This document shows positions 11,609 through 55,325 of a DNA stretch of 55,383 nucleotides, one piece after another (the first letter of the stretch is position 1; every line of letters begins with the position of its first letter). Origin of the DNA: Macrostomum lignano (Eukaryota); NCBI GenBank assembly GCA_002269645.1, contig NIVC01001729.1:1-55383 (forward strand). The letters are read 5' to 3'. Made by a program: the position numbers and the translations under genes. The notes under the pieces were generated by a model that worked only from the letters and a program-made list of their open reading frames with translations, made no database searches and had not been told where the DNA came from.

Positions 11609-11787
11609 CATACATGCGCAACCTTGGGAATCACTCGGCCATTTCTATTGGCAACACAGAACACACACATGTAAGTTGCTATTGGATGGAATAGTAGTCA
11701 CGTGATTGCTCTCAGCCAATAGCAACTTATATATGTGTGTTGCCAATAGAAATGGCCGGGTGAATCCCTAGGTTGCACCCAAGCATG
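11609..11787. mobile_element. Palindromic MITE, copy 2 (core inverted)
   Basis: Same family as 7980-8151; TSD ATAGGCCT (11601-11608 / 11788-11795). Confidence 0.9.
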
Positions 11788-13552
11788 ATAGGCCTAATTA
11801 TTAGATTATTATGATAGGTCTTTTATTATAAACTAAAAAATGGGTAATACAATACTGCATGCCCACATTTATCTTAACTTTAGCATTTATTTACTATTGA
11901 AACTAGGCCTAGGCCTTATTGCACTCATAAAGCTTTGAAACTAGGAATATTTAGGCCTATTCATTTTACTACCTTATATCTATTTATAAAACTAAGCTGG
12001 CTCTAATAATTGACAATGAAAATCTAGTTTTTAGTATTAATTTAAAATTTGTTTATTAATTTAGTTATCTATATTCAGTTTTAATTTTATTTTTCATAGG
12101 TAAATATGATTTTTTAATTAGTATTATTTAATAACTTAGATTTTGGCTATTAGGGTCTAATCCAAATACTAAATAGTACTTAGATGTCTAATTGTTACAT
12201 TTTTATTCAATAATCTTTAATTTTACTATAAGTATTTTGTACCAATATATTATCCTATCATCTATCTTAATAGATAGATAGTTATCATGCCAATTAAATT
12301 TTTGGTAGTAACTTACACTAGCAACCATTTTAGACAAAAGGCTGCAAAATCTAATCTTGTTAGATTTCAAACAGATTTCCTTATGATATAAATTATGTCT
12401 AGCATTGTATTTGACATACTTAATCCTTTGATCTTTCATGTGCCTATCTGACTTCAGTGGAAATTTTTGCAAAGCATCAACCTGCTAAAATGCCATTGCA
12501 CAAGATGATATACTTTTGGATACCAATTAAAGTGATCCACAAAGTGTCTTTCCTGACACCACAAGGTCTTCATTACATTTGACTTTAGCAAGTGAGTAAA
12601 TTTTCTAAATGTTGTTTTTTTTAATATATGGATAAGGGTTAGTAAAAAGCAAGGGTCAATGTGGTTGGGGCAAAAGATGATATATCCTTACCTTTTACAT
12701 GGCTAGTTTCCCTAAATTTATGATGGCATAGTTTGTAGCAAAATTTATGGTATAACCTTTTAGGAAAGTTCATTCCAATAAAAAGACAAAATTTCTCATT
12801 TTACCATTGCCCATACCTACCAACATTTTAGTGTGGTGGATGGACTCCAGCACTAGGCCTATTGCTCATCATTGCAGCACTCAAGTCAAAGTTTTGCATT
12901 TTTGGGCTTCCAATATCAACTAGAGCGATAGTCTCAATTGGAGGCCATGGAAAGCAATCTCAAGCATGCTGGTAGAGCCTGGTGCCAACCTTGGAAAGAA
13001 TTTGGAGCCCACCTGATTGTTAATCATTTTTCATCTGGCAGCTGCAACTGAGCATTGGAAATGGAATTCACTATATCTATAACTGGCCAGCGGGAACTGC
13101 ACACTGAGAAGCAATGCCCATGTCCTTCACCCCACATAACATTGAGGTCTCACTTTAGTGGTCTTAGCGATGTAGGATGCGATCTTCATAGACATGCCAT
13201 TGAACCTGATCTGCTATGCCACATCTCAAGAAAGCTGACTAATGTTTTAAGGGTATAGTGCGGCAAGACTGAGTCTGATAGATAGTCCAATTTCAGCCAC
13301 TGTAGGCCGACTGTGCAAAATTAATTGAAGCAAATAAGCTTCATGGTACTTGCTAATTTGCCAATTTTTTCTCTTTTTAAATACTGATATCTGCTTTTCT
13401 GTTTAGTTTAGCTACAAGTTGCGCAGCCATTGGAGCTAAGGCCGCCCACGCATTGCCTGGATGTAGTGCTCCTCACTAACCCCGTGCATAAAACTCCACA
13501 TGGCCATGACAATCCAACTGCACTGTTAGTTCCACAAAAAAATTCTATGCCG

Positions 13553-13722
13553 CATACATGCGCAACCTGGGGAATCACTCGGCCGTTTCTATTGGCAACA
13601 CACATGTAAGTCGCTATTGGCTGAGAATAGTCACGTGACTACTATTCCATCCAATAGCAACTTACATGTGTGTGTTGCCAATAGAAACGGCCGGGTGAAT
13701 CCCTAGGTTGCGCCCAGGCATG
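13553..13722. mobile_element. Palindromic MITE, copy 3
   Basis: Same family; TSD CTATGCCG / CTATGCCT (7 of 8 match). Confidence 0.85.
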
Positions 13723-16700
13723 CTATGCCTGGTAAACACTTAACACTACACTGCTGGTTATTATACTCATATTTCGACCTCCAAATTAAGCCAAGCCTTT
13801 ACAGTATTTAAATTTACTTTTCTGATTTACTTTTGATTTACTTCATAGATACAAGTACCATGTCATACAAAATATTTACTCAATTTTGCCCTTGCAGTTG
13901 CATATTATGAGCTGTGCATCTTTGTGCCTGGTTTATTTTTCCATTTCTGAAACATCAAACATTGCAAAAAACCAATTCAAAAACAAAGAACATTTTCTAT
14001 TTTCTACATCAGTATGTATAAAGAATGTATCTATACATTGCTCTTTTAATGTTTCAATGCACTGTATATATATTATAAATTACATCTTACATTCTTTGCA
14101 AGTCAAAACAGTTGAAAGTTCACATTTCAGATCTGTGAAACAAAATAAAATTCATTTGAAATGAAAAAAAGTCTTGTCTTTTTTATTTACTAAGGTGAAA
14201 GAGAAGTTATTAACTTTGAGTTATTTATAAGAAAGACATCACCAGCAAAAATTAAGGTAGTGCCAATGAGTCTTGAAGTGCTAGTGTCAGCCAGCAAGCA
14301 GTTAAAGAACTGCAGTTGCTCATCTTGAATGCAGTGCACAGTAGAATAGCCTCAAAGCTTGATGTTGTCTGGTTACTAGAGCACAGCAATCTTCTGTATG
14401 TTGACAACCAAACCAATTGCCAGCACAAAACCAACCAGCCTGCCTAGCTTTTTGGGTGGCAGGCTAGGTCACTGAGTTGTGACAAGTGAGCAGGACATGG
14501 AATGCCATAATGCAATCATTAGGTTGATCAAACATGAAGCATTGGCCAATACACAGCTAGTAGATAAGCTCAGAATGTAGGCTGAAAATCAGGCAGTGGC
14601 AATTGAGGCTTGTTGCTGGCAGCTGAAACAAAATATGTTGAAATATAAAGAATTTAATTGTTCAGGGTTAATGCAAAAATAAATATTATCAAAGGTTGTC
14701 AATTGTATTTTAATATATAAGTCAACATAAAAAAAAAGCTAATACATAAGCAAAAGGTACAAAAATTCAATTAGAAGTTTTACTACTATATGATGTAAAT
14801 TTTTAGCTAAAAAAGTAATTTAAACTTAAAATAGTACACATATAAAACTATTTTAACAAATTCCTTTTTCTTAAACTATTATTTAACATTTACCTTTTCT
14901 AACGACTAGCCTAATCTATTTATTTTGTTAATTATTAATGCAAATATATTTCTTATTAACACATTTTAACCTATAAAACTTGCAATTTAATAATAATAAT
15001 AATAATAATATTAAAAGTTAAATACTAAAAAAATCTAGAATATTTCTTATAGATAGGCCTACTTAGTAAAAATGGTTAGAGCTTGTTTTTGTGCCTAGGT
15101 CTATATGACTATATTCTTGCTCCTATATATGCAGGTCTAGCTTAAAAAACTGATAGCTTTCTAAAGACTTGAGGCCTAGGTAAAACAAGAAAAATGAAAA
15201 TGGTGGGGGCATATTGTAAATATTGTCCTTATATATTTAACTACATAGACAGGTCTATTAGTATAGTTACTACATTGAAATGGAATTATACCTACAATAA
15301 TGGCTTAATAGTACCGTAATGCAGCATTTTTATTGCAAATATACTTGATTTTAAAAAGGAAAAATACAAAGTTCGGCTAATGCCACTTGTGAGTATTTTG
15401 CAACTTGGGGCTTATGAAATAAAAAGAAAATAATATGAAGATGAAACTTTCAAGACACAACTACATTAAAATATAATAGAGTAACATGTTGTGCGTGCTA
15501 AATAAAAAGAATGGTTATCTTAGCTGCCTTAGATCAAATGCAATCATTGATTTTGTGATGAAAAAATGATTTGCTCCTATCTCCGCAGTGTATTTTTTCC
15601 AGGAAATCGTCCTCCTAAAAATTTACACGATCTTTGAGTTTTACGTCCTGCTAGTCTAGAAGTCCTTGCTCCTAATTACTCTTGCGGCACTCTGAGGCAC
15701 CGCGCCCTGTGGCATTGTCTCAACGCCTTACTGGCTGAAAATGTGAAAGGCTTTTAATTGTTGTTTAAGTCAGCCCGATCACTCTGAAGCTCTGGCTTGA
15801 AATTGAGGCATTGTCATGGCTTCAACGCTTGAAATTGTTGTTTCTTCTCCAAGGTGTACAGGATGACATGCAGCGTCACAGGGCCAAATATTGCGGCAGC
15901 AACGCCAATTACAAGAAACTACTGCATGGAAATTTAATGTTTCAGCCATGCTTTCAAGCAGCTGCGAGCGCGCTACTGTACATGCAGCTGTGACTGCAGT
16001 TCAGACTTATGGCAGCGACTCTCTGGAAGGAGCTGGTGCCAATCCGACGGGTGGGTCAGGGCGTCGACATGCATGGGTTTATTAGTGATGGGGGGACGTG
16101 CCACAAATTGCATAAGGTTAGCCAAAAATGATCTACATGTACATGTACACATGTAAATTACTATAAATTCTTGCATATAATTTACATGTACACTTTTTCA
16201 GAATCGCAGTGTTGTCACTTGAATAGCAATTGTTTAGTGTCGCAGACAGATCTAGGCGCTATTTTGTCGCCCTGAAGCAATCATCACCGCGGTCACACAA
16301 ATATGTGGGGTACGTGGGCCGTAGTCAACTTTCAACTTTTCTTGTTTATTTTTTCAGCATCAAACCGTCCAGGCCAACCCCTTAATAAATTTCTGGGTGC
16401 GCCACTGGGTGTAAAGTGGAAACTAAGGAACGGCGGAGCGAAGGACGTGCAGTGGAATTTTTGATTGTATAATACTTGGAGCTAAATAAACCTCCCAAGT
16501 TCGGCAAAAATTATGATTTTTTACTTAATATTTTAATACTTCTGCAAAATTGTCAATAAATTTTAATTTCAATAACTACTTTACGATTCATTAGTAGAAA
16601 TGTTTGTATAAGATTTTGTTTTAACTGGTATATTTGCATTTAAATTTGCTTCTCAACAACAGATTTTTTGTCATGAAGTCTAGCTAGCGTTATGCGCTGA

Positions 16701-27284: not shown

Positions 27285-30200
27285 TCATTCCTGCAGCCGG
27301 CCGTCCTCGATCAGGCGATCCAGGAAGTAGCGCACCCGGTCCATCTCCTCCACCCTGTTGGTCATCCGGACAACGTCGAGCAGCTCCTTGATGCCGACAT
27401 TCAAATGCCGATTCTGCGTCTCCTTCTTGATCCTGTCCAGCTCCTCTTTGGTGAACTCGGCGCTGTCAACTTTTTTCAGCGCCTCCAACAGTTCGTCAGA
27501 ATTGGTGAGATTGCTGACGTGAATCTTGCCGGCTGTGAAGCACTGGACAAGGCCGAGTTCGAGCAGCGCCTCCCGGCAGCTCGTGGTGCCCAGCAGCAGC
27601 AGGCTGCGATTCTTCGGCAGCGGCGCAGTGATCAAATCGCGGAGCGCCTGCAGCACGTAGTTCGAATACCTGGCATTGGGATCGGGGGCGGTTGCTTTGT
27701 CATAGTTTATTACAAAACACTCGCTATACTTCTTCAGTGAGCACCCCTGTCTCTTGGTGTGGGCGCCCCCTGTCTCTTGGTGGGTGCCCCTGTCTCTTGA
27801 TGGGTGCCCCTGTCTCTTGGTGGGTGCCCCTGTCTCTTGGTGGGTGCCCCTGTCTCTTGGTGGGTGCCCCTGTCTCTTGGTGGGCGCCCCTGTCTCTTGG
27901 TCTGGGCGCCCCCTGTCTTTTGGTGTGGGCGCCCCCTGTCTCTTGGTGGGCCAGGGGTCCGGAGCGAGAGCCAGTCGCAGTTTACCGCTGTTCTTGCTAC
28001 TCTGCCCCTAAGTAATATGTAGGTAGCATTTAATCAGTAATACTCGTACATTGTCACTGATGGTAGTAGTATATGTGTAGTCTTTTGCAAGACATGTATC
28101 ACGCAATTAAAATATTTATTTCTACAATACAAGTAGAAGACTCATGACGCTACTGTCAGTAGCCTTAGAAAAAGCTATTTAGGTCACCAAAACTGCATTT
28201 AGCTCACCTGGGCCCAACAGGGCTGTAGTCAATAAGGCCTTCTAACCCATCCAAAATAATCACGGCCTGTTTGGCTTTGTGCGCATCGTCAAAGTGCTGC
28301 TTAATAGCCTGGCATTTGGCCACCTCGCTGTAGCCAATCATGCGCTTGCTGGTGCACAGCCGGACATAGGAGAATCCCGATTGGCGGGCGATGTGCACCG
28401 CCAGGGCGGTTTTGCCTGCGGCGAGAAAGGGGAGATAAGACTGATAGCTTGACAATTAACCTCAGACAGATGGCACCCACCGATCTTAGGATTTGGGTAA
28501 ACAAAGACCATCTTGATTGAAGTGTACAAAGACACCATCCACGGCATCCAGGTGACACCAAGACAGACACCATCCAGGTGACAGCAAGACAGACACCATC
28601 CAGGTGACACCAAGACAGACACCATCCAGGTGACACCAAGACAGACACCATCCAGGTGACACCAAGACAGACACCATCCAGGTGACACCAAGACAGACAC
28701 CATCCAGGTGACATCAAGACAGACACCATCCAGGTGACATCAAGACAGAATCCAGGTGACACCGAGACACCATCCAGGTGACACCGAGACACCATCCAGG
28801 TGACACCAAGACACCATCCAGGTGACATCAAGACAGAATCCAGGTGACACCGAGACACCATCCAGGTGACACCGAGACACCATCCAGGTGACACCAAGAC
28901 ACCATCCAGGTGACATCAAGACAGAATCCAGGTGACACCGAGACACCATCCAGGTGACACCGAGACACCATCCAGGTGACACCAAGACACCATCTAGGTG
29001 ACATCAAGACAGACACCATCCAGGTGACACCAAGACAGACACCATCCAGGTGACACCAAGACAGACACCATCCAGGTGACATCAAGACAGACACCATCCA
29101 GGTGACATCAAGACAGACACCATCCAGGTGACACCAAGACAGACACCATCCAGGTGACATCAAGACAGAATCCAGTTGACACCGAGACACCATCCAGGTG
29201 ACACCGAGACACCATCCAGGTGACACCAAGACACCATCCAGGTGACACCAAGACAGACACCATCCAGGTGACACCAAGACACCATCCAGGTGACACCAAG
29301 ACAGACACCATCCAGGTGACATCAAGACAGACACCATCCAGGTGACATCAAGACAGACACCATCCAGGTGACACCGAGACACCATCCAGGTGACACCGAG
29401 ACACCATCCAGGTGACACCAAGACAGACACCATCCAGGTGACACCGAGACACTATCCAGGTGACACCGAGACACCATCCAGGTGACACCAAGACAGACAC
29501 CATCCAGGTGACACCGAGACACCATCCAGGTGACACCGTCGAGATACCATCCAGGTGACACCAAGACAGACACCATCCAGGTGACACCGAGACACCATCC
29601 AGGTGACACCGAGACACCATCCAGGTGACACCGAGACACCATCCAGGTGACACCGAGACACCATCCAGGTGACACCGTCGAGATACCATCCAGGTGACAC
29701 CAAGACAGACACCATCCAGGTGACACCGAGACACCATCCAGGTGACACCGAGACACCATCCAGGTGACACCGAGACACCATCCAGGTGACACCGAGACAC
29801 CATCCAGGTGACACCGAGACACCATCCAGGTGACACCGAGACACCATCCAGGTGACACCAAGACAGACACCATCCAGGTGACACCGAGACACCATCCAGG
29901 TGACACCGAGACACCATCCAGGTGACACCAAGACAGACACCATCCAGGTGACAGCAAGACAGACACCATCCAGGTGACACCAAGACAGACACCATCCAGG
30001 TGACACCAAGACAGACACCATCCAGGTGACACCAAGACAGACACCATCCAGGTGACACCAAGACAGACACCATCCAGGTGACACCAAGACAGACACCATC
30101 CAGGTGACACCAAGACAGACACCATCCAGGTGACACCAAGACAGACACCATCCAGGTGACACCAAGACACGCCAGTCACTCACCGCTATTAGGCGGCCCC

Positions 30201-31314
30201 TCGAGCAGCAGGGCCACAGGCCGGCCGCTGTCCAGGCTCTGCTCGGCCTCGGCGCGGGCGGCCCTGGTGGCCAGACTGCCGTTCTGCACGATGTGCTGCA
30301 CCGGCTCGCCCCAGTCGATGATGCCGCCAGTGATGTAGCGGTCCAGCTCCTCTTCCTGGGTGCCGAACGCCGGCTTGACGTCGTGCTCGAGCGCGTGCAT
30401 GAAATCGCCGCGCTGTACAAGGAGGCGATCTACGGCGTCCGGATCCAGCCGGACAGTGTCCGAGGCCTGCAAATGTAATTAGCCGGTGATCGACTGTATA
30501 GCCTTTTTAAATCAGCTTCCGGTCTATCGGGTATTTAGCTTCCGGTATGTCGGGTATTCAGCTTCCGCTATGTCGGGTATTAATCTTCCGGTCTATAGGG
30601 TATTTAGCTTCCGGTCTATCGGTTTTCAGTTTCCGGTAGGTCGGGTATTTAGCTTCCGGTCTATCGGTTTTCAGTTTCCGGTAGGTCGGGTATTTAGCTT
30701 CCGGTCTATCGGTTTTCAGTTTCCGGTAGGTCGGGTATTTAGCTTCCGGTCTATCGGTTTTCAGTTTCCGGTAGGTCAAGTATTTAGCTTCCGGTCTATC
30801 GGTTTTCAGTTTCCGGTAGGTCGGGTATTTAGCTTCCGGTCTATAGGGTATTTAGCTTCCGATACGTCGGGTATTCAGCTTCCGGTCAATCGGGAATTCA
30901 GCTTCCGGTGGCTATGATAATCAAAATATGATCTGATCAAAACGGCCCTGGCAGGGGACTCACCTGCACCAATCGGTTCATGGCAGTCACTGTGGCGGCC
31001 CGAACCAGGCCAGCCAGTTCGGCGCCAGAAAAATTTTTTGTCTCCTTGGCCAGCTCCTGAACGTCAACGTCCTGCGCCAGTTTGCCGTTCTTGCGCAGCT
31101 GCCCCGTGTGGATCTCCAGGATCTGAAGCCGGCCGTGCTGATCCGGCAGGCTGATCTCCATTTGAACCTCGAAGCGGCCCGGGCGGAGTAGCGCCTCGTC
31201 TATCATGTCCTTGCGGTTGGTCATGCCGATCACCAGGATGTTGTTCAGGGGCTCCACGCCTTCCATCTTGGTTAGCAGCTGGTTCACCACTGTGTCGTGC
31301 ACCTGGGAAGATAA

Positions 31315-31373
<59 letters not shown>

Positions 31374-31374
31374 T

Positions 31375-31417
<43 letters not shown>

Positions 31418-31441
31418 TATGGATAGATAGATAAATAGATG

Positions 31442-31501
<60 letters not shown>

Positions 31502-31557
31502 TATGGATAGATAGATAAATAGATGGATAGATAGATAGAGAGATAGATAGATCGATC

Positions 31558-31611
<54 letters not shown>

Positions 31612-32173
31612 CCCTCCCTACCTGCGTGCCACCGCCAACCGAGCCACGAGTTTTGCAGATGGCGTCAATCTCATCAAAGATAATGATGTGCAGGGCGGAG
31701 TTGTTGCCAACCCGTTTGTACTCTTCCTCGGCCTCGGCAAATAATTGTCGAATTTTCGACTCGCTCTCGCCGACATATTTATCCAGGATGGACGGTCCGT
31801 TGACGATTTTTGGTTCGCGGGCGTTTAGCATCTTGCCGATCTGGCGGGCCATGAGGGTCTTGCCGGTGCCCGGCGGCCCGTACAGCAGCAGGCCGCGCAC
31901 GTGATTCATGCCCAGCTGCTCCACCAGGTCCGGCGGGAAGATCCTTGAGGCGAATGTTCGACGAAATATGTCGCTGAATTCTCTGTCTAGGCCGCCGATG
32001 CCCATCATGCTGAAGTTCCAGTCCGGATTGATGATGGACTGGTACACCTGGGAGTGGCGGCGGGGCGGGCGGCGCTGAGAGACAGACAGTCAGACAGACA
32101 GACAGACAGACAGGCAGACAGACAGACAGACAGACAGGCAGACAGACAGACAGACAGACACAGACAGACAGAT

Positions 32174-32210
<37 letters not shown>

Positions 32211-33417
32211 CTTGTAGTGTGAGCATCTTTTGCGATAGCCTTGTATTCTATTAGTTAGGTTTTGCATTATTGTTATTGAATTATTATTTTGCTCTAGTTT
32301 AGTCATGCGTTTTTGGTGTACTTTTCTTGTTAGTTAAAATCTAAATTTGTAAACAGGTTAGAAGTCAGACGCCAATTGTGACTCAGCGGAGGGTTGAGTT
32401 TTCTGCGAACCCCAGCTTTGCGCGGCCAGCCAATCAGAACTGGCCTGGACCCTGGCACGCGGCAAGTTCCAGTTCTACCCGGCGCCGCGGGCACAGTGCA
32501 AATCAGCTTAACGGGCGGCCGGCCAGACGACCACCACCCGGCTTGAGGGGGGGTTGTGAGGGTTTGACTCTGACTATATACGAAAGTGTATTTGGCAATC
32601 GGATCTCGCCCTTCTTTCCCCGGTTTTGATTTTGTCCCGGTTCCCCGGCTGTTCGCCCGATCTTTTTGGTTCGCGCTTTGAGGCGTTTGAATTCGTCACC
32701 CCCGGTCCATATTTTGTTCCCCGCCCGACCGCCTCAGTCTTGTAGCGTAACGATTCGGCATCCTTGTCTGACGTCGTCGCTATCAAGCGCGGTTTAGATA
32801 GAGACTGTCGGATCTGATCAAGTACGCGGCCTCGACCCCGAGGGCCTCAGTGTCACACTGAAGGGCAGTGCTGATAGAACTTAGTCAGTGCTCCGTTGAA
32901 CGGTCGATTCGGCAGGGCTCTCGTTTGAGTGTAGGTTCTGGTTTAGGCCAGGGGTTAGGAGTATTCTCCGTGGTCGTGTTCGGTTCTTCTTCCTCTTCTT
33001 CTTCAGCTGAGATCTGCTTGCCAGTTGCGTTATTAATTTATTATCGCTAATCGTTATTACTCATTATCATCTGTGTCAATTTATCTGCGCCGTGAATCGT
33101 ATTGAGAATCTTGTAACTTTACTGATCAAATTAAACCGTCAATAAGATTTAGCTATTCTCATTAGGATTATCACTCTCTAAATCTTTCGGTTCGTGTTCC
33201 CTCGTGTTCTTTCTTTTCTTGTACTGTACCTGCGGCTATTGGAGAAAGACTGGTAGGACTCGCCGACCGGCGATAGGCAATTAGGGTCAATAGCTTTAAA
33301 ATCTCCGAACGCTCCAAGTAGGTTTGTCTACTAGGGCCTAATAATTGCTTACCGTGCATGCTATTTATCTAATTGCCTTTTTATCACACACTAAGACAGA
33401 CAGACAGACAGACACTA

Positions 33418-33458
<41 letters not shown>

Positions 33459-33467
33459 CAGACAGAT

Positions 33468-33548
<81 letters not shown>

Positions 33549-33625
33549 CAGACAGACAGACAGGCAGACAGACAGACAGGCAGACAGACACAGACAGACA
33601 GACAGACACAGACAGACAGACAGAT

Positions 33626-33670
<45 letters not shown>

Positions 33671-33863
33671 CAGACAGACAGACACTAAGACAGACAGACA
33701 GGCAGGCAGACAGACAGGCAGACACACAGACAGACAGACACACACAGACAGACAGACAGACACAGACAGGCAGATAGACAAACAGACACAGACAGACAGA
33801 CACTAAGACAGACAGACAGGCAGACAGACAGACAGGCAGACAGACACAGACAGACAGACAGAT

Positions 33864-33900
<37 letters not shown>

Positions 33901-33955
33901 CAGACAGACAGACACTAAGACAGACAGACAGGCAGGCAGACAGACAGGCAGACAC

Positions 33956-34010
<55 letters not shown>

Positions 34011-34083
34011 CAGACAGACAGACACTAAGACAGACAGACAGGCAGACAGACAGACAGGCAGACAGACAGACAGGCAGACAGAT

Positions 34084-34120
<37 letters not shown>

Positions 34121-34822
34121 CAGACAGACAGACACTAAGACAGACAGACAGGCAGGCAGACAGACAGGCAGACAGACACAGACAGACAGACACACAGACA
34201 GACAGACAGACAGACACAGGCAGCGTGCCAAGCGAGCAGCAATATCATTCCAATCAGCCCCACCTGCTTGCCCTTAGCCTTGCCGGTGAGGGTCAGCGGT
34301 GAGTCGGCGCTCAGCTTCTCAAACGTGACGATGGTGTTGCCAGAGACGATGCCAATCTTAGCCGGCTCTGTGCGGCCGTCGGGCAGCAGGAGCTCCAGCT
34401 CTTTGACACGCAGCAGCAGGTGCCGCTTGTCCTTGTATTTGAAGACCAGCTCCTGGCCGACTGTCAGGGGCATCTGGGGGAAGCACTGGGTGAACTCCAC
34501 CCGCATGTCGTCCGTGTTGTAGGGATCGTTGGTTGCGCTGCAGTGCGTGCGGAGTTTGGATGGAGAGTTGCGATGATTTTGAAAGAGAAAATGTTTAGAC
34601 TGCACTACTCAAAGTAGAGTTAGAGATATTTCACTTCCAATTGTTAAAGTAAAAACCTGTCCCTAAATGTACTTTTGTTCTCAGACTGGTTTGCTTTTAG
34701 CGTCTGTTTATGTGTGTGCATGTCTGTTTTTAGTGTCTGTTTAGTCTACTTTAATGTCTTTCTGTCTGTGTCTGTCAGCCTGTATGTCTCAGTGTCTGCT
34801 TGTGTCTGTCTGCCTGTCTACA

Positions 34823-38490: not shown

Positions 38491-41278
38491 TCACAGCAGC
38501 GCCTTGTGCCGGGTCTCGAACGCTTCCAGCTCGCGCACAATCTTGGCCCGCTCGCGGAGCGCCTTCCAAGCGGCGTCGCGGTCCTTCTTTAACGGCTGGC
38601 GTCGCTTCTGCCGGTAGGCCTGCAGCCTGGCGTGCGCCTCGACCACGTCGGCGTCGGCCACAGCCAGGCGACGCCGGATGGCCTGCCGCTGGGTGTCCAG
38701 CTTGGCCGCCGCGTACAGCCGCCGCAGCGTGGCCCTGTTGAAGTCGCACAGTCGGCGAAGCTCGCGCTGCCGTCCGCGCAGCGCCGTGGCCACCTCGTCG
38801 TCCGGATCGGCCGAGGCCGAGGATGAGGAAGTCAACTGGGCGGCCGCGGCGGCTGCGGCGGCGGCAGCTTCAGCGGCGGCGGCTGCGGCCACCGCGCCCT
38901 CTGAGTCGCTTTCAGCGCCGGCTCCTCCAGCGCTGGCGGCGCCGCTGGCGGCCCCGGCAGCTGCGAGTCTGCCGGGCGAGACGCCGTGCCGTTCGAGCTG
39001 CTTGCGGAGCCGGCGCTCCAGCTTGCAGCTGTTGGAAACCCCCAGCAGTTTGGCCAGCTGCTTGGTTGGCAGCGCGGCGAGCTGCGCTGTCTGCTGCATC
39101 TGCGGTGCGGCGAGATGAGGCTTTGATGGCCTGAACTCCTTACTGACACAGTCCTGAACTCACTACTGACACAGTCCTGAACTCACTACTGACAGACCAA
39201 ACTCAATACTGACAGCACAGCAGCCGGTCTCACCAGTCCAGGATCGTCAGTGTCGGTCAGGGTCTCCGACTTGCAGACTCCGCTGTCTTCATCGTCATTG
39301 GCCACCAGAGCGGCCACCAGCTGCTGAGCCAGCGGCCCCAAACCGCCCGCATCGGCGCCGGCGCCAGAGTCCGCGCTGCCCAATGGCGTCGAATCGACGC
39401 AAATCTCGGCCTGCAGGCGCATCATGAGAGCGGCGCCATTGTCGCCAGCCGACTGTTGCTGGGAAGAATCGGAGGTTGGCAGCAATCCAGCGTCGATCTC
39501 GCCGCCATGTTCGGCAATGGCGCCGTTACGACCATTTTTGCCGTTGCTGCTGTTGCTGCTGCTGCTGCTAATGCCGTTGAAGCCGCTGGCCGACTTCGAC
39601 TCGCCGTTGCTGGCGACCTCGGCGGCGGCCGAGTTAGGCAGCGGCGGCATCCGGAAAAAGCCGGAGTCTTCGCCGATCTCGTACGATCGAATTAGCAGCT
39701 CCAGCGAGTGCAGATTGTCCTCCGTGATCTCGGCGCAGTACGGCTCCATCAGGGCCCAGAATTTGTTCGGCACCTCGTACAGACCCGGCGGTGCGTCAGC
39801 CTGCTGCTGAGGTGTCGCCGACTCCGCCGCCGAGTCGGAATTAGCCGAAGCTCCAGCAGGTGCAGAAGCAGCAGCCGCAGCGACAGCAGCCGCCTTGTTC
39901 TTCCGCTGCTGATAGACACCGCCTGGTCGGAGCGGCTTGTTGTTTCCTGGAAAAGCGGCCACCGCGGCGGCGGCCGCGGCTCGTTTAGCCGGCGGCGCCA
40001 GAACTTCATCGGCAGACAGAGGACTGGCTGAGGCGTCGGCAGCGGCTGCGGCACCTGCTGAAGTGTTGCGCTTTTTTATCACCTTCAGATCTATCCTTCG
40101 GATCCGTCCTTCGGATCTATCCGTCTATACGTCCTTCGGATCTATCCGTCTATCCGTCCTTCGGATCTATCCGTCTATCCGTCCGTCTATCTATCCGTCC
40201 TTCGGATCTATCCGTCTATCCGTCCTTCGGATCTATCCGTCTATCCGTCCGTCTATCTATCCGTCCTTCGGATCTATCCTTCGGATCTACCCTTTGGATC
40301 TATTCTTCGGATCTACCCTTTGGATCTATCCTTCGGATCTATCCTTCGGATCTATCCTTCGGATCTATCCTTCGGATCTATCCTTCGGATCTATCCTTCG
40401 GATCTATCCTTCGGATCTATCCTTCGGATCTATCCTTCGGATCTATCCTTCGGATCTATCCTTCGGATCTATCCTTCGGATCTATCCTTCGGATCTATCC
40501 TTCGGATCTATCCTTCGGATCTATCCTTCGGATCTATCCTTCGGATCTATCCTTCGGATCTATCCTTCGGATCTATCCTTCGGATCTATCCTTCGGATCT
40601 ATCCTTCGGATCTATCCTTCGGATCTATCCTTCGGATCTATCCTTCGGATCTATCCTTCGGATCTATCCTTCGGATCTATCCTTCGGATCTATCCTTCGG
40701 ATCTATCCTTCGGATCTATCCTTCGGATCTATCCTTCGGATCTATCCTTCGGATCTATCCTTCGGATCTATCCTTCGGATCTATCCTTCGGATCTATCCT
40801 TTAAATCTTTAGCAGTCAGCTAGGACCTGCGGCTTATCATACTAGACTGTATCAGAATTCCCACTTAGGAGTAGAACAATTGGAACATCGTGTCACAGTT
40901 TTTATTTCAAAGCTGGCAACAAAAACTGAGCCCTGAGCTATTTCTCGTTGTCTCACCGTCAGCGCTTGTCGAGTCCTCGCGACGCCGCTTCAAGGAGATG
41001 GTCAGAGCCAACGGCTTGCCGGGAACTGACTTGACCACGGCCGCTCCCGGCAGCCATTCTGATTTGTTCGACCGGGTGATCAGGCCGCCAGGCAGTGGGG
41101 TGCCGCTGATCTCCGCGGCAAGCAGGAAGCTGCGCTTGTTCACATTGGCTAGCAGGGTCTCAGCCTCCCACTGCAGCCGGTCAATGTCCTCCGGCCGGAC
41201 AGCTGGCCGGCTCAGCAGGGCAGCGATGCCCGGACACTCGGACTCCAGCGTCACCGACGGCAGCCACAGCGGGGACAT
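38491..41278 (-). CDS. TADA3: Transcriptional adapter 3 (SAGA/ATAC HAT module)
   Basis: Exons ~41278-40957, ~40054-39234, 39099-38491. ECPGIAALL...DIDRLQWEAETLL, PNKFWALMEPYCAEIT, LGPLAQQLVAALV, and DDEVATALRGRQREL...KKDRDAAWKALRER match the recalled ADA3 blocks. The start codon and the exon-2 acceptor (NAGNAG 40057/40054) are uncertain. Confidence 0.9.
40088..40800 (+). repeat. 13-bp minisatellite (CGGATCTATCCTT)
   Basis: About 40 near-perfect copies plus degenerate flank in a TADA3 intron. Confidence 0.96.
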
Positions 41279-44577: not shown

Positions 44578-45190
44578 GTAGCTGGGTAGATTAGAAGGTA
44601 GCTGGGTAGATTAGAGAGTAGCTGAGTAGATTAGAAGGTAGCTGGGTAGATTAGAGAGTAGCTGAGTAGATTAGAAAGTAGCTGAGCAGATTAGAGAGTA
44701 GCTGAGTAGATTAGAGAGTAGCTGAGTAGATTAGAAAGTAGCTGAGCAGATTAGAGAGTAGCTGAGTAGATTAGAGAGTAGCTGAGTAGATTAGAGAGTA
44801 GCTAAGTAGATTAGAGAGTAGCTGAGTAGATTAGAGAGTAGCTGAGTAGATTAGAGAGTAGCTAAGTAGATTAGAGAGTAGCTGAGCAGATTAAAGACAT
44901 AAGAATACGCCAGAAAGCAGCTAGGTACAGGCCAGACAGCAGCTGAGTACAGGCCAGATAGCAGCTGAGTACAGGCCAGACAGCAGCTGAGTACAGGATA
45001 GACAGCAGCTGAGTACAGGCCAGACAGCAGCTGAGTACAGGCCAGACAGCAGCTGAGCACAGGCCAGACAGCAGCTGAGCACAGGCCAGACAGCAGCTGA
45101 GTACAGGCCAGACACAAGCTGAGCACAGGCCAGACAGCAGCTGAGCACAGGCCAGACAGCAGCTGAGCACAGGCCAGACAACACCCAGCT
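44578..45190 (+). repeat. Two adjacent related minisatellites (20-bp GTAGCTGAGTAGATTAGAGA; 22-bp GACAGCAGCTGAGTACAGGCCA)
   Basis: Both share an AGCTGAG core; the array abuts the stop codon of the ankyrin-SOCS gene. Confidence 0.9.
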
Positions 45191-46795
45191 ACTCCGGCCA
45201 AGGCCAGGCCGGCAGTCCCAGGCAGAGGAAGTCGCGCAGCCTGCAGGGCAGCCAATTAGCGGTCTGCCTGGCCGCTGTCGGGCCGAGCTGCCGCAGTCGG
45301 CGCCAGACGGCTCGCCTGGCCAACGCAGTCAGCTGCTCCGGCCGCTGCCCCGCAGCCGTGGCGGCCGTCCACGCGGCCAGAGGCGCTTGGCCAGTCGACA
45401 TCGGCCGAGGCGGAGCGGCGCCGAAAGCGAGCAGAACTTCGGCAACTCGGCAGTGGCCGCGAGAGCAGGCAACCGCCAGCGGCGTATCGGCGGCTGGACC
45501 GCAGCGGCAGCGGCAGCGGGCCTCCAGATCGGCGCCGGCGCTGGCCAGCAGGATGGCCGCCTCCGGCTGGTTGTGCGCGGACGCATAGTGCAGCGGCGAG
45601 CCCAACCGGCTGTGGGAATCCAGCAGCGGAGGAAAGGACTATGGCATGTTTTTATAGCCCACTACAAATTATTCTATCAATACGCTTACACTGCCGCTTT
45701 CAGTAGCAAAGAACTCCGATTTCTTGCTCCGAAAACTTGTTCCGATTTCTTTAACGACCGTATGGTTTTTATGTGCAGTTTTTTGGTGATGCACTTTTAC
45801 TGAAAACTCTAGCCGTCAAAAACTTTTCTTAGAAATATCAATAATAATCGCCCGGTTTGGCAAATCACCTGCCCCAAGCCTCACCTGTCCGCTCTTAGGC
45901 CTCACCTGTCCGCCCCTAAGCCTCACCTGTCCGCCCCTAAGCCTCACCTGTCCGCTCTTAGGCCTCACCTGTCCGCCCCTAAGCCTCACCTGTCCGCTCT
46001 TAGGCCTCACCTGTCCGCCTCACCTGCCCACCACCTCAAGCCTCACCTGCCCACCACCTCAAGCCTCACCTGCCCACCACCTCAAGCCTCACCTGCCCAC
46101 CAGCTCAAGCCTCACCTGCCCACCACCTCAAGCCTCACCTGCCCACCATCTCAAGCCTCACCTGCCCACCATCTCAAGCCTCACCTGCCCACCAGCTCAA
46201 GCCTCACCTGCCCACCACCTCAAGCCTCACCTGCCCACCATCTCAAGCCTCACCTGCCCACCAGCTCAAGCCTCACCTGCCCACCACCTCAAGCCTCACC
46301 TGCCCACCACCTCAAGCCTCACCTGCCCACCACTTCAAGCCTCACCTGCCTACCACCTCAAGCCTCAGCTGCCCACCATCTCAAGCCTCACCTGCCCACC
46401 ACCTCAAGCCTCAGCTGCCCACCACCTCAAGCCTCACCTGCCCACCACCTCAAGCCTCACCTGTCCGCCCGATCCAGACAGGCGCCCCGCTCAATCAGCA
46501 AGCGCACCAGTGCCAGATGTCCCGATCCCACTGCCATGTGCAGCGGCGTGGAGCCCCAATCGTTAGCGGCGTCCAACTTGGCGCCACGGCCAATCAGAAA
46601 GGCGGCAACCTCGAAGCAACCGGCTGCGCAGGCCTCGTGCAGGCCGGTGTTGCCGTTTGGGCCGGCGCGCGTGTCGACGCCGAGATCGCCGGCGCCGAGG
46701 CTGCGCGCCACGGCTGAGAGGCGGCCGGCGCGCACGTGACCAAGCCAGCGGGCGGCCTCAGCCTCGCGATGGGCGGCAGTCAATAAGAGCATCAT
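45189..46795 (-). CDS. Ankyrin repeat and SOCS box protein (ASB family), ~251 aa
   Basis: Exons 46795-46461 and 45609-45189 (phase 2, GT-AG). Ankyrin motifs GNTGLHEA, GSTPLHMA, GSPLHYA, DTPLAVA. C-terminal SOCS-like PEQLTALARRAVWRRL...LPCRLRDFL. Confidence 0.85.
45868..46465 (-). repeat. Intronic 21/23-bp minisatellite containing CAG|GTGAGG in each unit
   Basis: GCCTCACCTG recurs in every unit on +; the array starts at the exon-1 donor. Confidence 0.93.
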
Positions 46796-47214
46796 TTGTT
46801 TGCAATATTCAAAATTTTTCCATTGATTTACTTGTACTACCGCTAATAGCAGTGTGAATATATTTTTGAATTATTTTGGCAAATACATCTTTTAAAAACC
46901 CTTAACTGCCCCTATAAGTAGCACGGATCTAAAAAAAGGATAAATTAAAATATGCCAGAAACGCTGCTGTATCCAACCCTACAAGCCGCCCCGCTTTACT
47001 ATCTCGCTCGCTCTGTCTGACCCCCTCTAGCCGCAGGCGCGTCTTTGCAAACACAATGCTGAAATGTTAGCGAAAAATAAAATGAAGTTAAATGAAGGCC
47101 GGAGTACGACTGGAACTGCAGTAGCTGCGGAAAATGTTGAACAAGTTAGTAACGAAAATGGCTAATCGAATAATAGGTGACAGACCTTATGGCTTATAAA
47201 AGGAGGGCGGTAAG

Positions 47215-47959: not shown

Positions 47960-50900
47960 TCAAGCGCACAGAAGCAGCGGCACCTCGCTAAGGCTGACCT
48001 GAACGTCCACCGGGTCAAACAGTTCGTTATCAAGAAAATAAGGCGTCTCTTTTTTCTTTTGCTTCTCCAGCTCTTCCGGCGTAGGCTGCTGGACCGACGC
48101 GGCGGCCTCATTGTTGCGCAACAGGCGGACGGAGACGCCGCCAGCCAGTAGTTGAGTCTCAGAGCAGTCAGTGTAGAACTGATCGATTCGAGCTGCGGCA
48201 GTGGAAGAGTCGCCACCAGACAGTCTGGTGCCGATGGCCCGCCACAGCTGGCCGCCTGATAGGCGAGCTGGGAGCACCTGGCAATGAAATGTTGCGGGCA
48301 GCCTTCGCTTCTGATATCCCAGATCTCAGTCCCTAGAAGTAGTAATAGAAAATTACGTCCATACCCCACTTTTCAATTGCAAAACACGTAATAAGGTACC
48401 TGTCAGAAATTTTATTACGCACATACCTTATTTTTGTATTAAAAATCAAGTAGTAAGGTACCGAACCAAATGGTAGGGTATTCTACGGGAATTCCAACTA
48501 CACTGCACCGCACCCACAAAGAACGAGAAAGAAAAGACCCAACAACACCGATCAACCAAGTTGCTGAAAAACGACAGCTATTTCTGCATTACAAGAATAG
48601 AGGAAACACGCACCCACAAAGAACAAAAGAAAAGATCTTAATAAATTGCAGAAGTCAAAATTGTGCCACAATCCCTCTGCAAGCAAAACCCAGCTCAGAA
48701 CAGGACACAGGCAGTAAATAAGCCACGTGCTGCGCCCAGCCTTTTTTGTAACAGGAGTCATTCAAGACCCCAATTTTTTCATTTTCGAGAAAAGACCATT
48801 GAGACTTACGAAACTAAGTATACTTGAATACAACTTGACTAAAATATAATACGCCAAAAGAAATATGCAGTTTTTAACTCTCAGTCACCGATCGAGAAAC
48901 CGATCAAATCCAAAAAACCAGGTAATTGTAAGTGTTGCTGTGACAAGATCCGCCTGAGTTCGGTACTGACGGCCATGCACAATAATAAACTGAACCATCG
49001 TAGTAAGAAACAGTCTTTCGGTCGAATCAAGTTGACATGTCTATATATTTTAACAGATGAGATACACGATTAGTTAATTCATGACGTTAATTTCTTGATG
49101 CAAATGAACGCAAAAATGCGATTTGACAGTCTTTTAAATAACTTTAAAATTCCCTAACGAATAGTGGATAAATAATTACAATACTAATAATACCAAATTA
49201 TTTACGAGCTTCGTTCCATTGCACAGTCAGGCGTCCGCAGTCAAATCGCAGTAGTCAACCGTAGTGACTCTTCCCGACTCCTTCTCCCTGAAGAAGAAAC
49301 GGAAGCAGCCAGCACCTAGGGCTTGTACAGCCAGGGCGTATTTACCTTCGCAAGCCGTGACATGCTCGGGGTACATATATATCCCGGCGGCGGCCGCGCA
49401 AAGACCCCGTTCTTGAACGCTGCAAAGAGAGAAGACGCAGCCCATTACTACCTCATTAGCCTCTGAATAAACAAAAAGCCCAATGCTTACCATCTCTCAC
49501 ATATCGCTCAGCTAGTTCCTTCTTTTGCGCGGATTTGTCCATATTCGTAGTGAGTGAATGCGTTTAGACAAGACTAGAAAATTTTCCGGACTGCTGTCGG
49601 TAGGATCTTATATTCAGCAAAATTACTCATAGGGACGACTGAGATCTCATGTGGTGGATTAGGGAGGGTCAGGGTTGGTTGAGAGGAAGGGGTGGATCGA
49701 GTTGGGAGCCACCAACGTAAAGGGAGCGAGAAGGGGGGTTCGTTCTACCTAGTCAGCAGAGGGTTTCGCGTTGGCGGCAGCTGCAACCTTTAGATGATAA
49801 AGACTATTTCTTTGTGGCGAATACAGACACTTCGAATCTTCCTGGTAGGCATTGGGTTGTAGTTTGGGTGAGTAGCAGGCGGGTTAGGGGGCGCCGTGGA
49901 CGAAGAGTCGGGGAATATTTTGATACGCTTGGTTTAAATCCATCGGAAAATATTAGACGGTGGTTGAGGCGAGAATGTGGGGATTTTCAAAATTGGTCCT
50001 ACAGCCGATTTGCTATTCAGGATCCTCGGACTGGTCATTGTGGTATTTGGGTGTTGTTTTATTTGTATTTCAAACTGACTGGTGGTGGTAGCCTTCGATT
50101 CTTTTTAACGCGTATTCTTGGTTGTGGGTCTCGTCGAAGGAAATGAATTTCGGCGCACGTATTTTTGCCTACGACGCTTTGCAGCACATGTGTTGCCTCT
50201 GTTCTTGTAATGCAGAAATATACCGAAAGTGCGTTTTTGGACAAGTTGGTTGGTTGGTTGATCGAAATTGAGATCTTTTCTTCTTTTGGATTCTTTGTGG
50301 GTGCGGTGCAGTGCAGTTACAATTCCTGTAGAATACCCTACCCTTTGGTTCGGTACCTTACTACTTGATTTTTAACAGAAAAATAGGGTATGTGCGTAAT
50401 AAAATTTCTGACGGGTACCTTATTACGTGTTTTGCAATTGAAAAGTGAGGTATGGACGTAATTTTCTATTACTACTCCTAGATCCTAGATCCTAGATCCT
50501 AGATCCCAGATCCTAGATCACAGATCCTAGATCACAGATCCTAGATCCCAGATCCTAGATCCCAGATCCTAGATCCCAGATCCTAGATCCCAGATCCCAG
50601 ATCCTAGATCCTAGATCCCAGATCCTAGATCCCAGATCCTAGATCCTAGATCCTAGATCCCAGATCCTAGATCCCAGATCCTAGATCCCAGATCCTAGAT
50701 CCCAGATCCTAGATCCTAGATCCCAGATCCTAGATCCCAGATCCCAGATCCTAGATCCTAGATCCCAGATCCTAGATCCTAGATCCCAGATCCTAGATCC
50801 TAGATCCCAGATCCCAGATCCTAGATCCCAGATCCTAGATCCTAGATCCTAGATCCCAGATCCTAGATCCTAGATCCTAGATCCCAGATCCTAGATCCCA

Positions 50901-53900
50901 GATCCTAGATCCCAGATCCTAGATCCCAGATCCTAGATCCCAGATCCTAGATCCCAGATCCTAGATCCCAGATCCTAGATCCCAGATCCTAGATCCCAGA
51001 TCCTAGATCCCAGATCCTAGATCCCAGATCCTAGATCCTAGATCCCAGATCCTAGATCCCAGATCCTAGATCCCAGATCCTAGATCCCAGATCCTAGATC
51101 CCAGATCCTAGATCCCAGATCCTAGATCCCAGATCCTAGATCCCAGATCCTAGATCCCAGATCCTAGATCCCAGATCCTAGATCCCAGATCCTAGATCCC
51201 AGATCCTAGATCCCAGATCCTAGATCCCAGATCCTAGATCCCAGATCCTAGATCCCAGATCCTAGATCCCAGATCCTAGATCCCAGATCCTAGATCCCAG
51301 ATCCTAGATCCCAGATCCTAGATCCCAGGTCCTAGATCTGAAATCCTAAATCCCAAATCCTAAATTAAAAATGCCAGTTTCTGGACAATAACGGACCCAA
51401 TATCCCAGATCCCCAAACCGCAGCCCGCAACGCCAACCTGCAGCAGTACGCCCCGGCAGTGCCGGTAGGCGTTGGGCTTAGACGAATCCCAAAGTCGCCG
51501 GTACTTCCAGTTGACGCCACTGGCCGCAGTCGGGTTGACGGAGGCGGTCGCCAGCTGCTGCTGCTGCTGTGCTGGCGAGGGTCGCTGGCTGACGCTGAGC
51601 AGGCGGCTGCTCAGACTGCGTGCCGGGGCGGGAGCCACGCAGCGGGCGCAACCGGGACAAGCCGGCGTCCAGTCAATGACGCAGCCGACTGGGACGGCGG
51701 CAGCGGCCGAAGGCGAGGCGGTCTCGGCCAGCCAGTGCAGACAGCGCTGCGCCACTGTAGGCAGGTTGCGCCGAATGGCCGAGGCTTCGGTGGCGCGCTC
51801 GCGCTGTCTAAGACTGGACCTGCCATTGAGTTAATCCACAGTGTACAAATCCTTATTTATTTTTAAATCCAAAACTCCTAATACGCTCGTACCAATAATT
51901 GTCCATCTTTCAGTTCCCATTGTAAAATCCCAATATCCGAATCTCCAAGCTCAAATCCCAATATCCGAATCTCCAAGCTCAAATCCCAATTTCCGAATCT
52001 CCAAGCTCAAATCCCAATATCCGAATCTCCAAGCTCAAATCCCAATATCCGAATCTCCAAGCACAAATCCCAATATCCGAATCTCCAAGCTCAAATCCCA
52101 ATATCCGAATCTCCAAGCTCAAATCCCAATATCCGAATCCCCAAGCTCAAATCCCAATATCCCAATCTCCAAGCTCAAATCCCAATATCCGAATCTCTAA
52201 GCTCAAATCCCAATATCCGAATCCCCATTCTGAAATCCCAATATCCGAATCCTCATTTCCAAATCCCAAAATCCGATTCCCCATTTTAATATCTTAATAT
52301 CTGAATCCCATTCTAAAATCCCAAAAAATTAAAATCCCAATTCTTAAATCCCAATATCCGATTCCCCATTCTCAGATGCCAATATCCAAATCTCCATTCT
52401 GAAATCCCAATATCAGATCCCCCATTCTTAAATCCCAATATCCAAATCCCCATTCTCAAATCCCAATAACCGAATTCTAATTCTAAAATCACAATATCTA
52501 AATCCCATTATCAAATCCCAATATCCAAATCCCCATTATCAAATCCCAATATCCAAATCCCCATTCTCAAATGCCAATATCCAAATCCCCATTCTCAAAT
52601 GCCAATATCCAAATCCCCATTCTCAAATCCCAATATCTGAATTCCCATTCTCAAATTCCAATTTTTAACCTCTTATCTACGAGTGTAGGAATCTTAATAC
52701 GCTGCATATGCAATAAATATGGCCAAAACGCACCACTCGAGCGCGGTCAGGCAGTAGGTGTCCCTCGGCAGCTCAGAATCGCCCCCTAGTCTGACTCGAA
52801 CTCGCATGGGTCGAACAGCAGCTATTCGCTTAGTAGTTGTTGCAGTATTATTGAAATTTGCGGAAGTCGCCTGCAGCAGGGCTTCCACAGTCCGCCGGCA
52901 AGCCTCCGGCAGGCCTTCGGCGGGACTTGCGCCGCCGCCAACGCCAGTCGACACTGTCGACGTCGAATCGCTGCGCCGGCCAAGCGGAGCGGCGGCAACC
53001 GGCAGGCGAGCGGCAACTCGGCGAGAGTCTGGCCGGCGGAGCAGACCGTGACCGCCTGCATCAGGGTGCCATCGCCGCCTGCAACCAGCACAGCGTCAGT
53101 GCTGTTGAGGTCCAGCACCTCCATGAAGCCTTTGTTCTCGTCCTCCGCGTCGCCTTCAACTAGTTGCACCTGCAGCAGGCAGACGACAAGTGAATGATGG
53201 AGCACGGATTAAGGAATTCTGATTAGGAGATTTTCAATAGATCGCAATGTTTTTACCCCAAGTTTCCAGGAAATTGGAATCTTTGAGTTTCCAGGAAATT
53301 GGAATCTTTGAGTTTCCAGGAAATTGGAATCTTTGAGTTTCCAGGAAATTGGAATCTATAAGTTTCTAGGAAATTGGAATGTTTGAGTTTCTAGGAAATT
53401 GGAATCTCTGAGTTTCTAGGAAACTGAAATCTTTAACTTTCTAGGAAATGGAACCCCCACCCCATTTTCCACGAAATTGGAAGCTCTTGGTTTCTAGGAA
53501 ATTAGAACTTCGAGTTTCCAGGAAATTGGAATCTTTCAGTTTCCAGGAAATTGGAATCTTTGAGTTTCCAGGAAATTGGAATCTTTGAGTTTCCAGGAAA
53601 TTGGAATCTTTGAGTTTCCGGGAAATTGGAATCTCTAAGTTTGTAGGAAATTGGAATGTTTGAGTTTCTAGGAAATTGGAATCTCTGAGTTTCTAGGAAA
53701 CTGAAATCTTTAACTTTCTAGGAAATGGGAACCCCCACCCAATTTTCCACGAAATTGGAAGCTCTTGGTTTCTAGGAAATTAAAACTTCGAGCTTTCCAA
53801 GAAAAAATACTAAATTTCTAGGAAATTGGAATCATTTCTTAGTTTCTAGCAAATTTGAACCTCTGCGGCCTTTTCAGAAAATTTGAACCCGCACCTTAGA

Positions 53901-55325
53901 TATCTAGGAAATTATACTATTACAGACCTGGAATTCCTTAATGGAAATTAAAAGTCCAAAACTTTAGATATCAGACCGCTAACCCAAGAGCTCCCAGCCT
54001 ACCCAACCGCAGAGATCCCAGCCCTCCAACCCAAGAGATCCCAGCCCTCCAACACCAGAGATCCCAGCTTACCCAACCCAAGAGATCTCAGCCTACCCAA
54101 CCCAAGAGATCCCAGCCCTCCAACACCAGAGATCTCAGCCTACTTAACCCAAGAGATCTCAGCTCTCCAACCCCAAGAGATACCAGCCTACCCAACCCAA
54201 GAGATCTCAGCTCTCCAACCCAAGAGATCCCAGCCTACCCAACCCAAGAGATCCCAGCCTACCCAACCAAAAGATCCCAGCCCTCCAACCCCAGAGATCC
54301 CAGCCTACCCAACCCCAGAGATCCCTGCCTCCAACCCCAAGAGATGCCAGCCCTCCAACCGCAGAGATCCCAGCCTACCCACTCCAAAGATCCCAGCCCT
54401 CCAACCCAGAGATCTCATCCCTCGAAAACCAGAGATCCCAGCCCTCCAAAACCAGAGATCCCAGCCCTTCAACACCAGAGATCCAGTCCTCCAATACGAG
54501 AGATCCCAGCCTCCAACCCCAGAGATTTCAGCCTACCCAACCCAAAGATCCCAGCCTACCCAACCCCAAAGATCCCAGCCTACCCAACCCCAAAGATCCC
54601 AGTCCTCCAACTCCAGAGATCCCAGTCTCCAACCCCAGAGATCCCAGCCTACCCACTCCAAAGATCCCAGCCCTCCAACCCCAGAGATCTCATCCCTCGA
54701 ACACCAAAGATCCCAGCCCTCCAAAACCAGAGATCCAAGCCCTTCAACACCAGAGATCCCAGTCCTCCAATACGAGAGATCCCAGCCCTCCAACCCCAGA
54801 GATTTCAGCCTACCCAACCCCAAAGATCCCAGCCTACCCAACCCAAAGATCCCAGTCCTCCAACTCCAGAGATCCCAGTCCTCCAACCCCAGAGATCCCA
54901 GCCCTCCAACCCCAGAGATCCCAGTCCTCCAACTCCAGAGATCCCAGCCCTCCAACTCCAGAGATGAAAGTCCAACCTCAAAGCCAGCCAAATGCAGCAT
55001 AGGCGACAGAGCCTTCTCAAACAGGCGCTCTGAGCTGCCCTAGGATTAAACAGCACTGTAACCCGACGCGGCTGCTGTTGCTGCTGTGACTGCGGCCTAC
55101 GCTGGCCCGTCTGCTGCCACTGGCCGCTGACGGCGCATCGCCGAACGCCTTCGCCCATCGACAATGCTGGCGAAGTTCGGCTCGCTCCGCCTGCCGTGTG
55201 TAGAGCCAGTTGGCCAGCCACCCAGCCGCTAGGGCGGCCGCGCACTTCTTCGGGTTCTCGCGGATAACGCGTAGGATAGGCTGGAAAAATAAAATGCGCG
55301 AAAAACATCTGACTAGACTACTCAT
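47960..55325 (-). CDS. AGK: Acylglycerol kinase (mitochondrial), with three apparent frameshifts
   Basis: Exons ~55325-54977, 53169-52734, 51819-51438, 48277-47960. RENPKKCAAAL..WLY, RVTVLFNP, LFEKALSPMLHLAG, VLVAGGDGTL, LTALEW|SSLR and YFLDNELFDPVDVQVSL match the recalled AGK blocks. Frame changes at ~55120, ~55035 and 53046. Confidence 0.85.
48338..50476. mobile_element. Miniature non-autonomous Maverick/Polinton derivative (2139 bp)
   Basis: Termini AGTAGTAATAGAAAATTACG...CGTAATTTTCTATTACTACT; imperfect ~275-bp TIRs; 6-bp TSD CCTAGA (48332-48337 / 50477-50482); internal adenain-like ORF. Confidence 0.88.
49814..50146 (+). pseudogene. Adenovirus-type cysteine protease (adenain, peptidase C5-like) of Maverick origin, no ATG in frame
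   Basis: NTDTSNLPGRHW (His), EYFDTLG (Asp), AIQD (oxyanion Gln), GHCG (Cys). The frame is open upstream to a TAA at 49718 with no ATG. Confidence 0.8.
50477..51365 (+). repeat. 7-bp minisatellite (GATCCTA/GATCCCA)n
   Basis: Direct reading; begins at the Maverick right TSD. Confidence 0.96.
51925..52660 (+). repeat. 28-bp minisatellite (TCAAATCCCAATATCCGAATCTCCAAGC), decaying rightwards
   Basis: AGK intron 51820-52733. Confidence 0.9.
53262..53870 (+). repeat. 25-bp minisatellite (GGAAATTGGAATCTTTGAGTTTCCA)
   Basis: AGK intron 53170-54976. Confidence 0.9.
53990..54965 (+). repeat. ~23-bp minisatellite (AGAGATCCCAGCCCTCCAACCCC)
   Basis: Runs up to ~10 bp from the AGK exon-1 donor. Confidence 0.92.

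Follow-up and report, generated by a model that had tools for sequence, protein, structure and literature searches.

A 2,139-bp element in an intron of Macrostomum lignano is clearly derived from a Polinton (Maverick) and keeps, beside one of its terminal inverted repeats (TIRs), the core of an adenain-like protease. The protease gene is not intact. Judged by homology and structure prediction, what is left would be a stub, a core without the start codon, the N-terminal helix and the N-terminal strand. This stub is very probably a dead passenger, a view common to two readings, decay in place and membership of a non-autonomous family. Our tentative preference is for the first, an aged, internally deleted Polinton whose truncated protease decayed where it stands. 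The window, meaning the whole stretch of DNA analysed, covers 55,383 nucleotides, and the features of the element and its surroundings are these:

47963-55280, minus strand: host acylglycerol-kinase-like gene, placed by mapping a named M. lignano protein
48278-51437, minus strand: last intron of this host gene, which holds the element
48332-48337: left target-site duplication, CCTAGA
48338-50476: Polinton-derived element, contig NIVC01001729.1
48338-48609, plus strand: left TIR, 272 bp, starting with (AGT)2
48610-48642, plus strand: 33-bp duplicate of an inner TIR segment, 85% match to 50267-50305 of the right arm
48643-49720: interior without a recognisable gene
49721-50146, plus strand: frame of 141 codons without Met, homologous to Polinton and adenain-like proteases over about 49780-50134
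50148-50207, plus strand: likely C-terminal protease helix, read in another frame, its tail overlapping the right TIR
50190-50476, minus strand: right TIR, 287 bp, finishing with (ACT)2
50477-50482: right target-site duplication, CCTAGA, which doubles as the first satellite unit
50476-51362: 14-bp intronic satellite, about 64 copies, with the element inserted at its edge

The preliminary description had given this element AGTAGT termini, TIRs of about 275 bp and a 6-bp target-site duplication (TSD), and all three were borne out. AGTAGT starts at 48338 and ACTACT finishes at 50476, so the ends have the form (AGT)2…(ACT)2. Between the two TIR arms, 248 aligned positions are identical, 24 mismatched and 15 gapped (blastn E 1.7e-87). 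The repeats and terminal motifs are thus far beyond chance. The terminal 28 bp of the left TIR match the right arm perfectly. No gap interrupts the outer 184 nt, where the arms differ at 10 positions, 7 by transitions; the outermost difference is at position 29. Divergence between the arms is 5.4% (95% interval 2.6-9.8%). The three subgenomes of M. lignano stand closer to one another, at 1.9-2.4% SNPs (PMC10733133). Similarity decreases inward, and the inner 100 nt are gappy. The left TIR contains two sub-repeats at a spacing of 62 bp, at 48392 and 48454; the extra segment copy behind it is possibly a rearrangement scar. Folding of the left TIR is no better than that of shuffles (z -0.80). CCTAGA is found on both flanks, and 6 bp is the only length that matches among duplication lengths 3-10. 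The right copy belongs to the adjoining satellite, in which CCTAGA starts at 7.7% of positions, so the TSD alone is weak evidence.

By protein mapping, some 60 nt separate the end of the element from the 3′ splice site of the host intron. The last host exon, to the left of the element, is a 99% match to the M. lignano protein BOX15_Mlig007375g6, which contains a DAGK_cat domain, and the first part of the host protein resembles human acylglycerol kinase (PDB 7cgp, E 0.0016). PDB searches with three other host frames returned no kinase match; the identity of the gene was settled through the match to the named protein. Compared with that model over 1,444 nt, the reading frame of the host gene in the window is broken 5 times, which may reflect an error in either sequence, assembly indels or a decaying paralogue. 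Because of these breaks, a single frame break anywhere in the window is weak evidence. Three other host genes lie on the minus strand, NSF-like (27285-34608), ADA3-like (38491-40124) and ankyrin-repeat (45189-46870), and nearly every one of their introns has a tandem repeat of its own.

Other repeats populate the window. A 4,860-bp element at 10809-15668 has 524-bp, 100% identical TIRs (CAAGG…CCTTG), an 8-bp TSD (CTCCTAAT) and no frame of at least 120 aa; it is a young non-autonomous DNA transposon, presumably hAT-like by its TSD length. A palindromic, MITE-like repeat of about 190 bp occurs in three copies (11602-11795, 13546-13730 and 7980-8153), two of them nested in that element. At 157-6485, two arrays of one 177-bp satellite, 99% identical and oppositely oriented, enclose a fragmented LINE-like element (RVT_1, minus strand, about 2632-5137).

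It is established that Polintons integrate by means of an integrase and protein-primed replication. They encode pPolB, integrase, ATPase, protease and capsid proteins, and their terminal repeats are thought to serve protein priming, as stated in the accessible text of PMC8097293. The same text gives (AGT)2//(ACT)2 ends with a 6-bp TSD as the commonest Maverick signature and (AG)3//(CT)3 as the alternative. Our element resembles Polintons/Mavericks (adintoviruses) in its ends, its 6-bp TSD, a TIR length within their range of 46-1,447 bp and an adenain-like protease. It differs in size and content, since those described there are 12.7-24.6 kb (about 13-25 kb) long and carry the core genes, while here 2,139 bp hold a truncated protease (PMC8097293, accessible text). 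In vertebrate Polintons, as far as the available sources describe them, the protease is oriented to the centre, whereas here it abuts a TIR. Membership among autonomous Polintons thus fails on size, pPolB, integrase, ATPase and capsids. The element has intact ends and no transposition genes of its own, as expected of a non-autonomous Polinton.

The interior shows no recognisable replication or capsid gene. None of the 55 stop-free frames of at least 28 aa matches a Pfam family for pPolB, integrase, ATPase or capsid, a search through which short, remote capsid remnants could escape. This agrees with the initial account, which had seen no pPolB, integrase, ATPase or major capsid frame. The longest frame in the element is the one of 141 aa. 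A minus-strand frame of 89 aa (49227-49496) has no Pfam, PHROG or Atlas support (best Atlas score 0.76). Also on the minus strand, at 49490-49316, three GT..AG stretches of 28-32 nt follow in a row downstream of an ATG near 49543, a layout that may mark a small spliced accessory gene lying head-to-head with the protease. Pfam matches of TIR frames to Cys_rich_KTR, Methyltransf_4 and Med25 fall below the cut-off and were taken as chance. There was no match to phage DNA and no Rfam family in the window. A sigma-70 promoter scan, inapplicable to animal DNA, gave a result at chance.

By homology and modelling, the coding stretch is the core of a Polinton protease of the adenain-like type (clan CE). 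Its catalytic His, Asp, Gln and Cys, which had been noted from the outset, are all present, at 49850, 49922, 50018 and 50039. A homologue search with the single sequence retained 0 of 124 candidates; later searches did find relatives. Among 1.84 billion representatives there are 439 relatives at E<=0.001, the best being P0001, at 57% identity over the core. In an alignment with 41 relatives all 7 invariant residues are kept in the window frame, as are 12 conserved positions. A profile of this alignment (the window plus the 41 relatives) matches African swine fever virus (ASFV) pS273R (E 1.9e-16) and adenovirus adenain (E 6.9e-12). These two clan CE proteases of solved structure share the His-Asp/Glu-Gln-Cys core. 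Atlas feature matches point to adenovirus-endoprotease clusters (0.96; cluster 62% C5). PHROGs gave E 0.28-0.34 at best. A profile match to peptidase C5, proposed earlier as a check, did not materialise: the window frame has no Pfam Peptidase_C5 match, and its C48 score of 17.5 bits is below the cut-off of 20.7, while 28 of the 42 sequences aligned do match C5 (E<=0.01).

Structure prediction agrees with this assignment. The modelled core folds confidently (mean pLDDT 82.6). Among the viral models of BFVD it fits best the adenain encoded by Terrapene box turtle adintovirus (E 4.9e-5), and Foldseek matches it to ASFV pS273R in the PDB. A quick tree was computed from 56 rows, comprising P0001-P0040 and P0151-P0166 up to 215 aa long together with the window core, and the latter groups with P0001, P0151 and P0152 (SH-aLRT 93). 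A long loop before the catalytic Asp is common to all four. Against these three closest relatives the window core scores 299, whereas none of the 146 more distant relatives listed scores above 213 against them, which makes the window core nearer to the three than any of those.

The front part of the protease is missing. There is no ATG in frame over 49721-50146, and none of the 141 codons encodes Met. Near-cognate start codons are present at codons 21 and 32, but starting at one would still leave out the N-terminal helix and strand. We built a family profile from 133 of the 150 matches listed (Met-started, 130-215 aa). It matches the window frame only at profile positions 33-131 of 169. The conserved N-terminal motif was scored in 1,473 plus-strand windows and reaches 0.5 bits at best; for the relatives the leave-one-out median is 24.6, and only 3 of the 128 relatives alignable there (of 133) score as low. 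A pairwise-score test is softer, with 37 of the 146 distant relatives listed scoring as low as the upstream frames of the window. A frameshift-tolerant search for the N-terminus with the three closest relatives gave chance level (47 of 150 shuffles as high), and none of 46 stop-free GT-AG splice models contains the motif, which leaves a hidden N-terminus reached by frameshift or splicing unsupported. About 400 nt upstream, at 49300-49367, lies a weak N-terminal-like profile match of 16-19 bits, equalled by 2 and 1 of 40 shuffles. With the same 133-sequence profile, real N-termini have a median of 41 bits and a 10th percentile of 24.6, and the upstream match falls below that percentile.

The models point the same way. 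The intact relative P0001 is modelled with an N-terminal helix and strand of high confidence (pLDDT 95-97), while residues 1-20 of the window model are unstructured (pLDDT 42-51). The part of the profile that is absent in the window frame is where the N-terminal helix and strand of adenovirus adenain fall. P0001, P0151 and P0152 (183-190 aa) differ from the window in having a start Met, the N-terminal motif and the C-terminal helix all in one frame. The initial claim of a kept protease holds for the core and its catalytic residues and goes too far for the gene, whose frame has no ATG and covers only part of the profile.

At the 3′ end, the sequence of the C-terminal helix probably continues in another frame. 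The resemblance, at 50148-50195, has a shuffle p of 0.002 for the summed score (one of three frames) and of 0.09 for P0001 alone, and BLASTP did not recover the out-of-frame C-terminus. The frame break near 50125-50147 may be real or an assembly error. The break rate of the host gene implies, with a probability of about 0.8, that the protease region contains one or more artefactual breaks. This break is therefore not counted as decay.

The conservation of the core gives no sign of selection and is no greater than drift could leave. Our estimate assumes that the TIR arms were identical at insertion, which gives about 2.7% decay per arm; the divergence may predate insertion. Under neutrality and 2.7-5.4% decay, the four catalytic residues remain unchanged with a probability of 0.77-0.59 and the twelve conserved residues with one of 0.48-0.22; the probability that the frame stays free of stops is 0.64-0.41. 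At the observed TIR age, chance alone would be expected to leave the catalytic residues intact. In the neighbouring element at 10809-15668, 524 of 524 TIR positions are identical, which shows that such levels of substitution are not general noise.

We favour, still tentatively, an aged Polinton decayed in place, and its history may be sketched as follows. A parent Polinton would have integrated at the edge of the intronic satellite, producing the 6-bp duplication. Most of the interior would then have been lost through one or more deletions. As the protease gene adjoined the right TIR, which its 3′ end overlaps, any deletion sparing the right end would keep the catalytic core automatically. Position next to the right TIR alone suffices to explain the retention of the core. 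The 5′ part of the gene would have gone with the deleted interior, and the stub would not be translated into a working enzyme. The copy would be mobile only if a full-length relative supplied polymerase and integrase, and would not have spread. Polinton or Maverick origin and non-autonomy, both put forward at the start, are supported by the ends, the TSD, the TIRs, the protease clan and the absent replication and capsid genes.

Short non-autonomous Polintons have reportedly been described, by Kapitonov and Jurka in 2006 or in Repbase, and we take the "N1" of Polinton-1N1_DR to mean non-autonomous. That zebrafish family is named in the accessible part of PMC9341505. The accessible texts of other reports describe Polinton remnants with TIRs in C. 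elegans (10.1101/2024.01.15.575659), Polinton fragments of 600-4,500 bp in Mayetiola (PMC8504770) and insect polintons without polB that appear to have remained mobile (10.1101/2025.02.07.637071). The zebrafish family, the C. elegans remnants and the polB-less insect polintons resemble our element in having kept ends and lost core genes, as far as these sources go; the insect polintons differ in being larger than 2.1 kb. Polinton-N1A_NV, in spite of what its name suggests, carries a capsid gene (PMC11296320, accessible text). Of vertebrate Maverick loci, 96% are degraded (PMC8097293, same part). The literature searched, partly available as excerpts, contains no description of a 2-kb Polinton with a protease stub or of a protease-only mini-element, and subscription papers, Repbase and bioRxiv supplements may contain one. 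It likewise contains no description of a Polinton or Maverick in Macrostomum, and neither name is mentioned in the accessible content of three supplementary files of PMC5730564.

These precedents bear on a rival reading, a multi-copy, MITE-like Polinton family whose intact ends would let a full-length helper copy it in trans, the protease stub staying passive. We regard this as possible, if doubtful. The TSD and the two ends are clean, the terminal 28 bp show no mismatch, and the inward fall in TIR similarity could arise over rounds of copying; Polinton-1N1_DR (PMC9341505) and the mobile polB-less insect polintons (10.1101/2025.02.07.637071) are precedents in the text available. However, blastn found no second copy of the element or of its TIR within the 55-kb window, a tiny sample, the arms are 5.4% apart, and no non-autonomous copies were seen in Anolis, according to the accessible portion of PMC3014272.

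An assembly artefact is improbable. It would mean that the assembly, polyploid and rich in repeats, had collapsed a full-length Polinton or joined it chimerically. The region is rich in satellites and shows indel-type discrepancies, and chimeric scaffolds make up 36% of the length of one M. lignano assembly (PMC10733133, accessible text). Yet the TSD matches on both sides, the host exons are continuous on both flanks, there is no N, and the TIR differences are mostly transitions.

That the protease is expressed, through splicing, a non-AUG start or an intact frame masked by assembly errors, and aids or interferes with helper particle maturation is very unlikely. The analysis turned up no evidence of either role. 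In its favour are the catalytic residues and 12 conserved positions, the confident fold of the core, the frequency of assembly indels, the near-cognate starts and the weak upstream match. Nevertheless, there is no start codon and no recognisable N-terminal helix or strand, a near-cognate start omits both, and the conservation lies within neutral expectation. Moreover, Polintons that lose capsids often lack protease and ATPase too (9 elements, in the part of PMC4028283 available). Still less credible is a multi-copy family of 2-kb Polinton satellites in Macrostomum, mobilised in trans, with a complete, expressed protease under purifying selection that tunes or sabotages helper virion maturation, its N-terminus being concealed by splicing or assembly errors. 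If this were true, the element would be defective-interfering towards an animal Polinton and would point indirectly to the existence of particles. Capture of a Polinton protease fragment by a TIR transposon of another superfamily we consider most unlikely of all. It would fit that no parent Polinton with these TIRs is seen in the 55-kb window, but the ends and TSD are the commonest Maverick signature (PMC8097293, accessible text) and the protease end overlaps the TIR.

The element is most likely a fossil, as most Maverick loci are, and of an ordinary kind. It would be a surprise only if the protease were expressed and under selection. Its value is modest: it documents that Macrostomum, an animal ready for transgenesis, has a lineage of Polintons, and full-length relatives could be sought with its TIRs as a probe. 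Should it prove to be multi-copy, the element would offer a compact natural substrate that defines the cis-signals of Polinton mobilisation.
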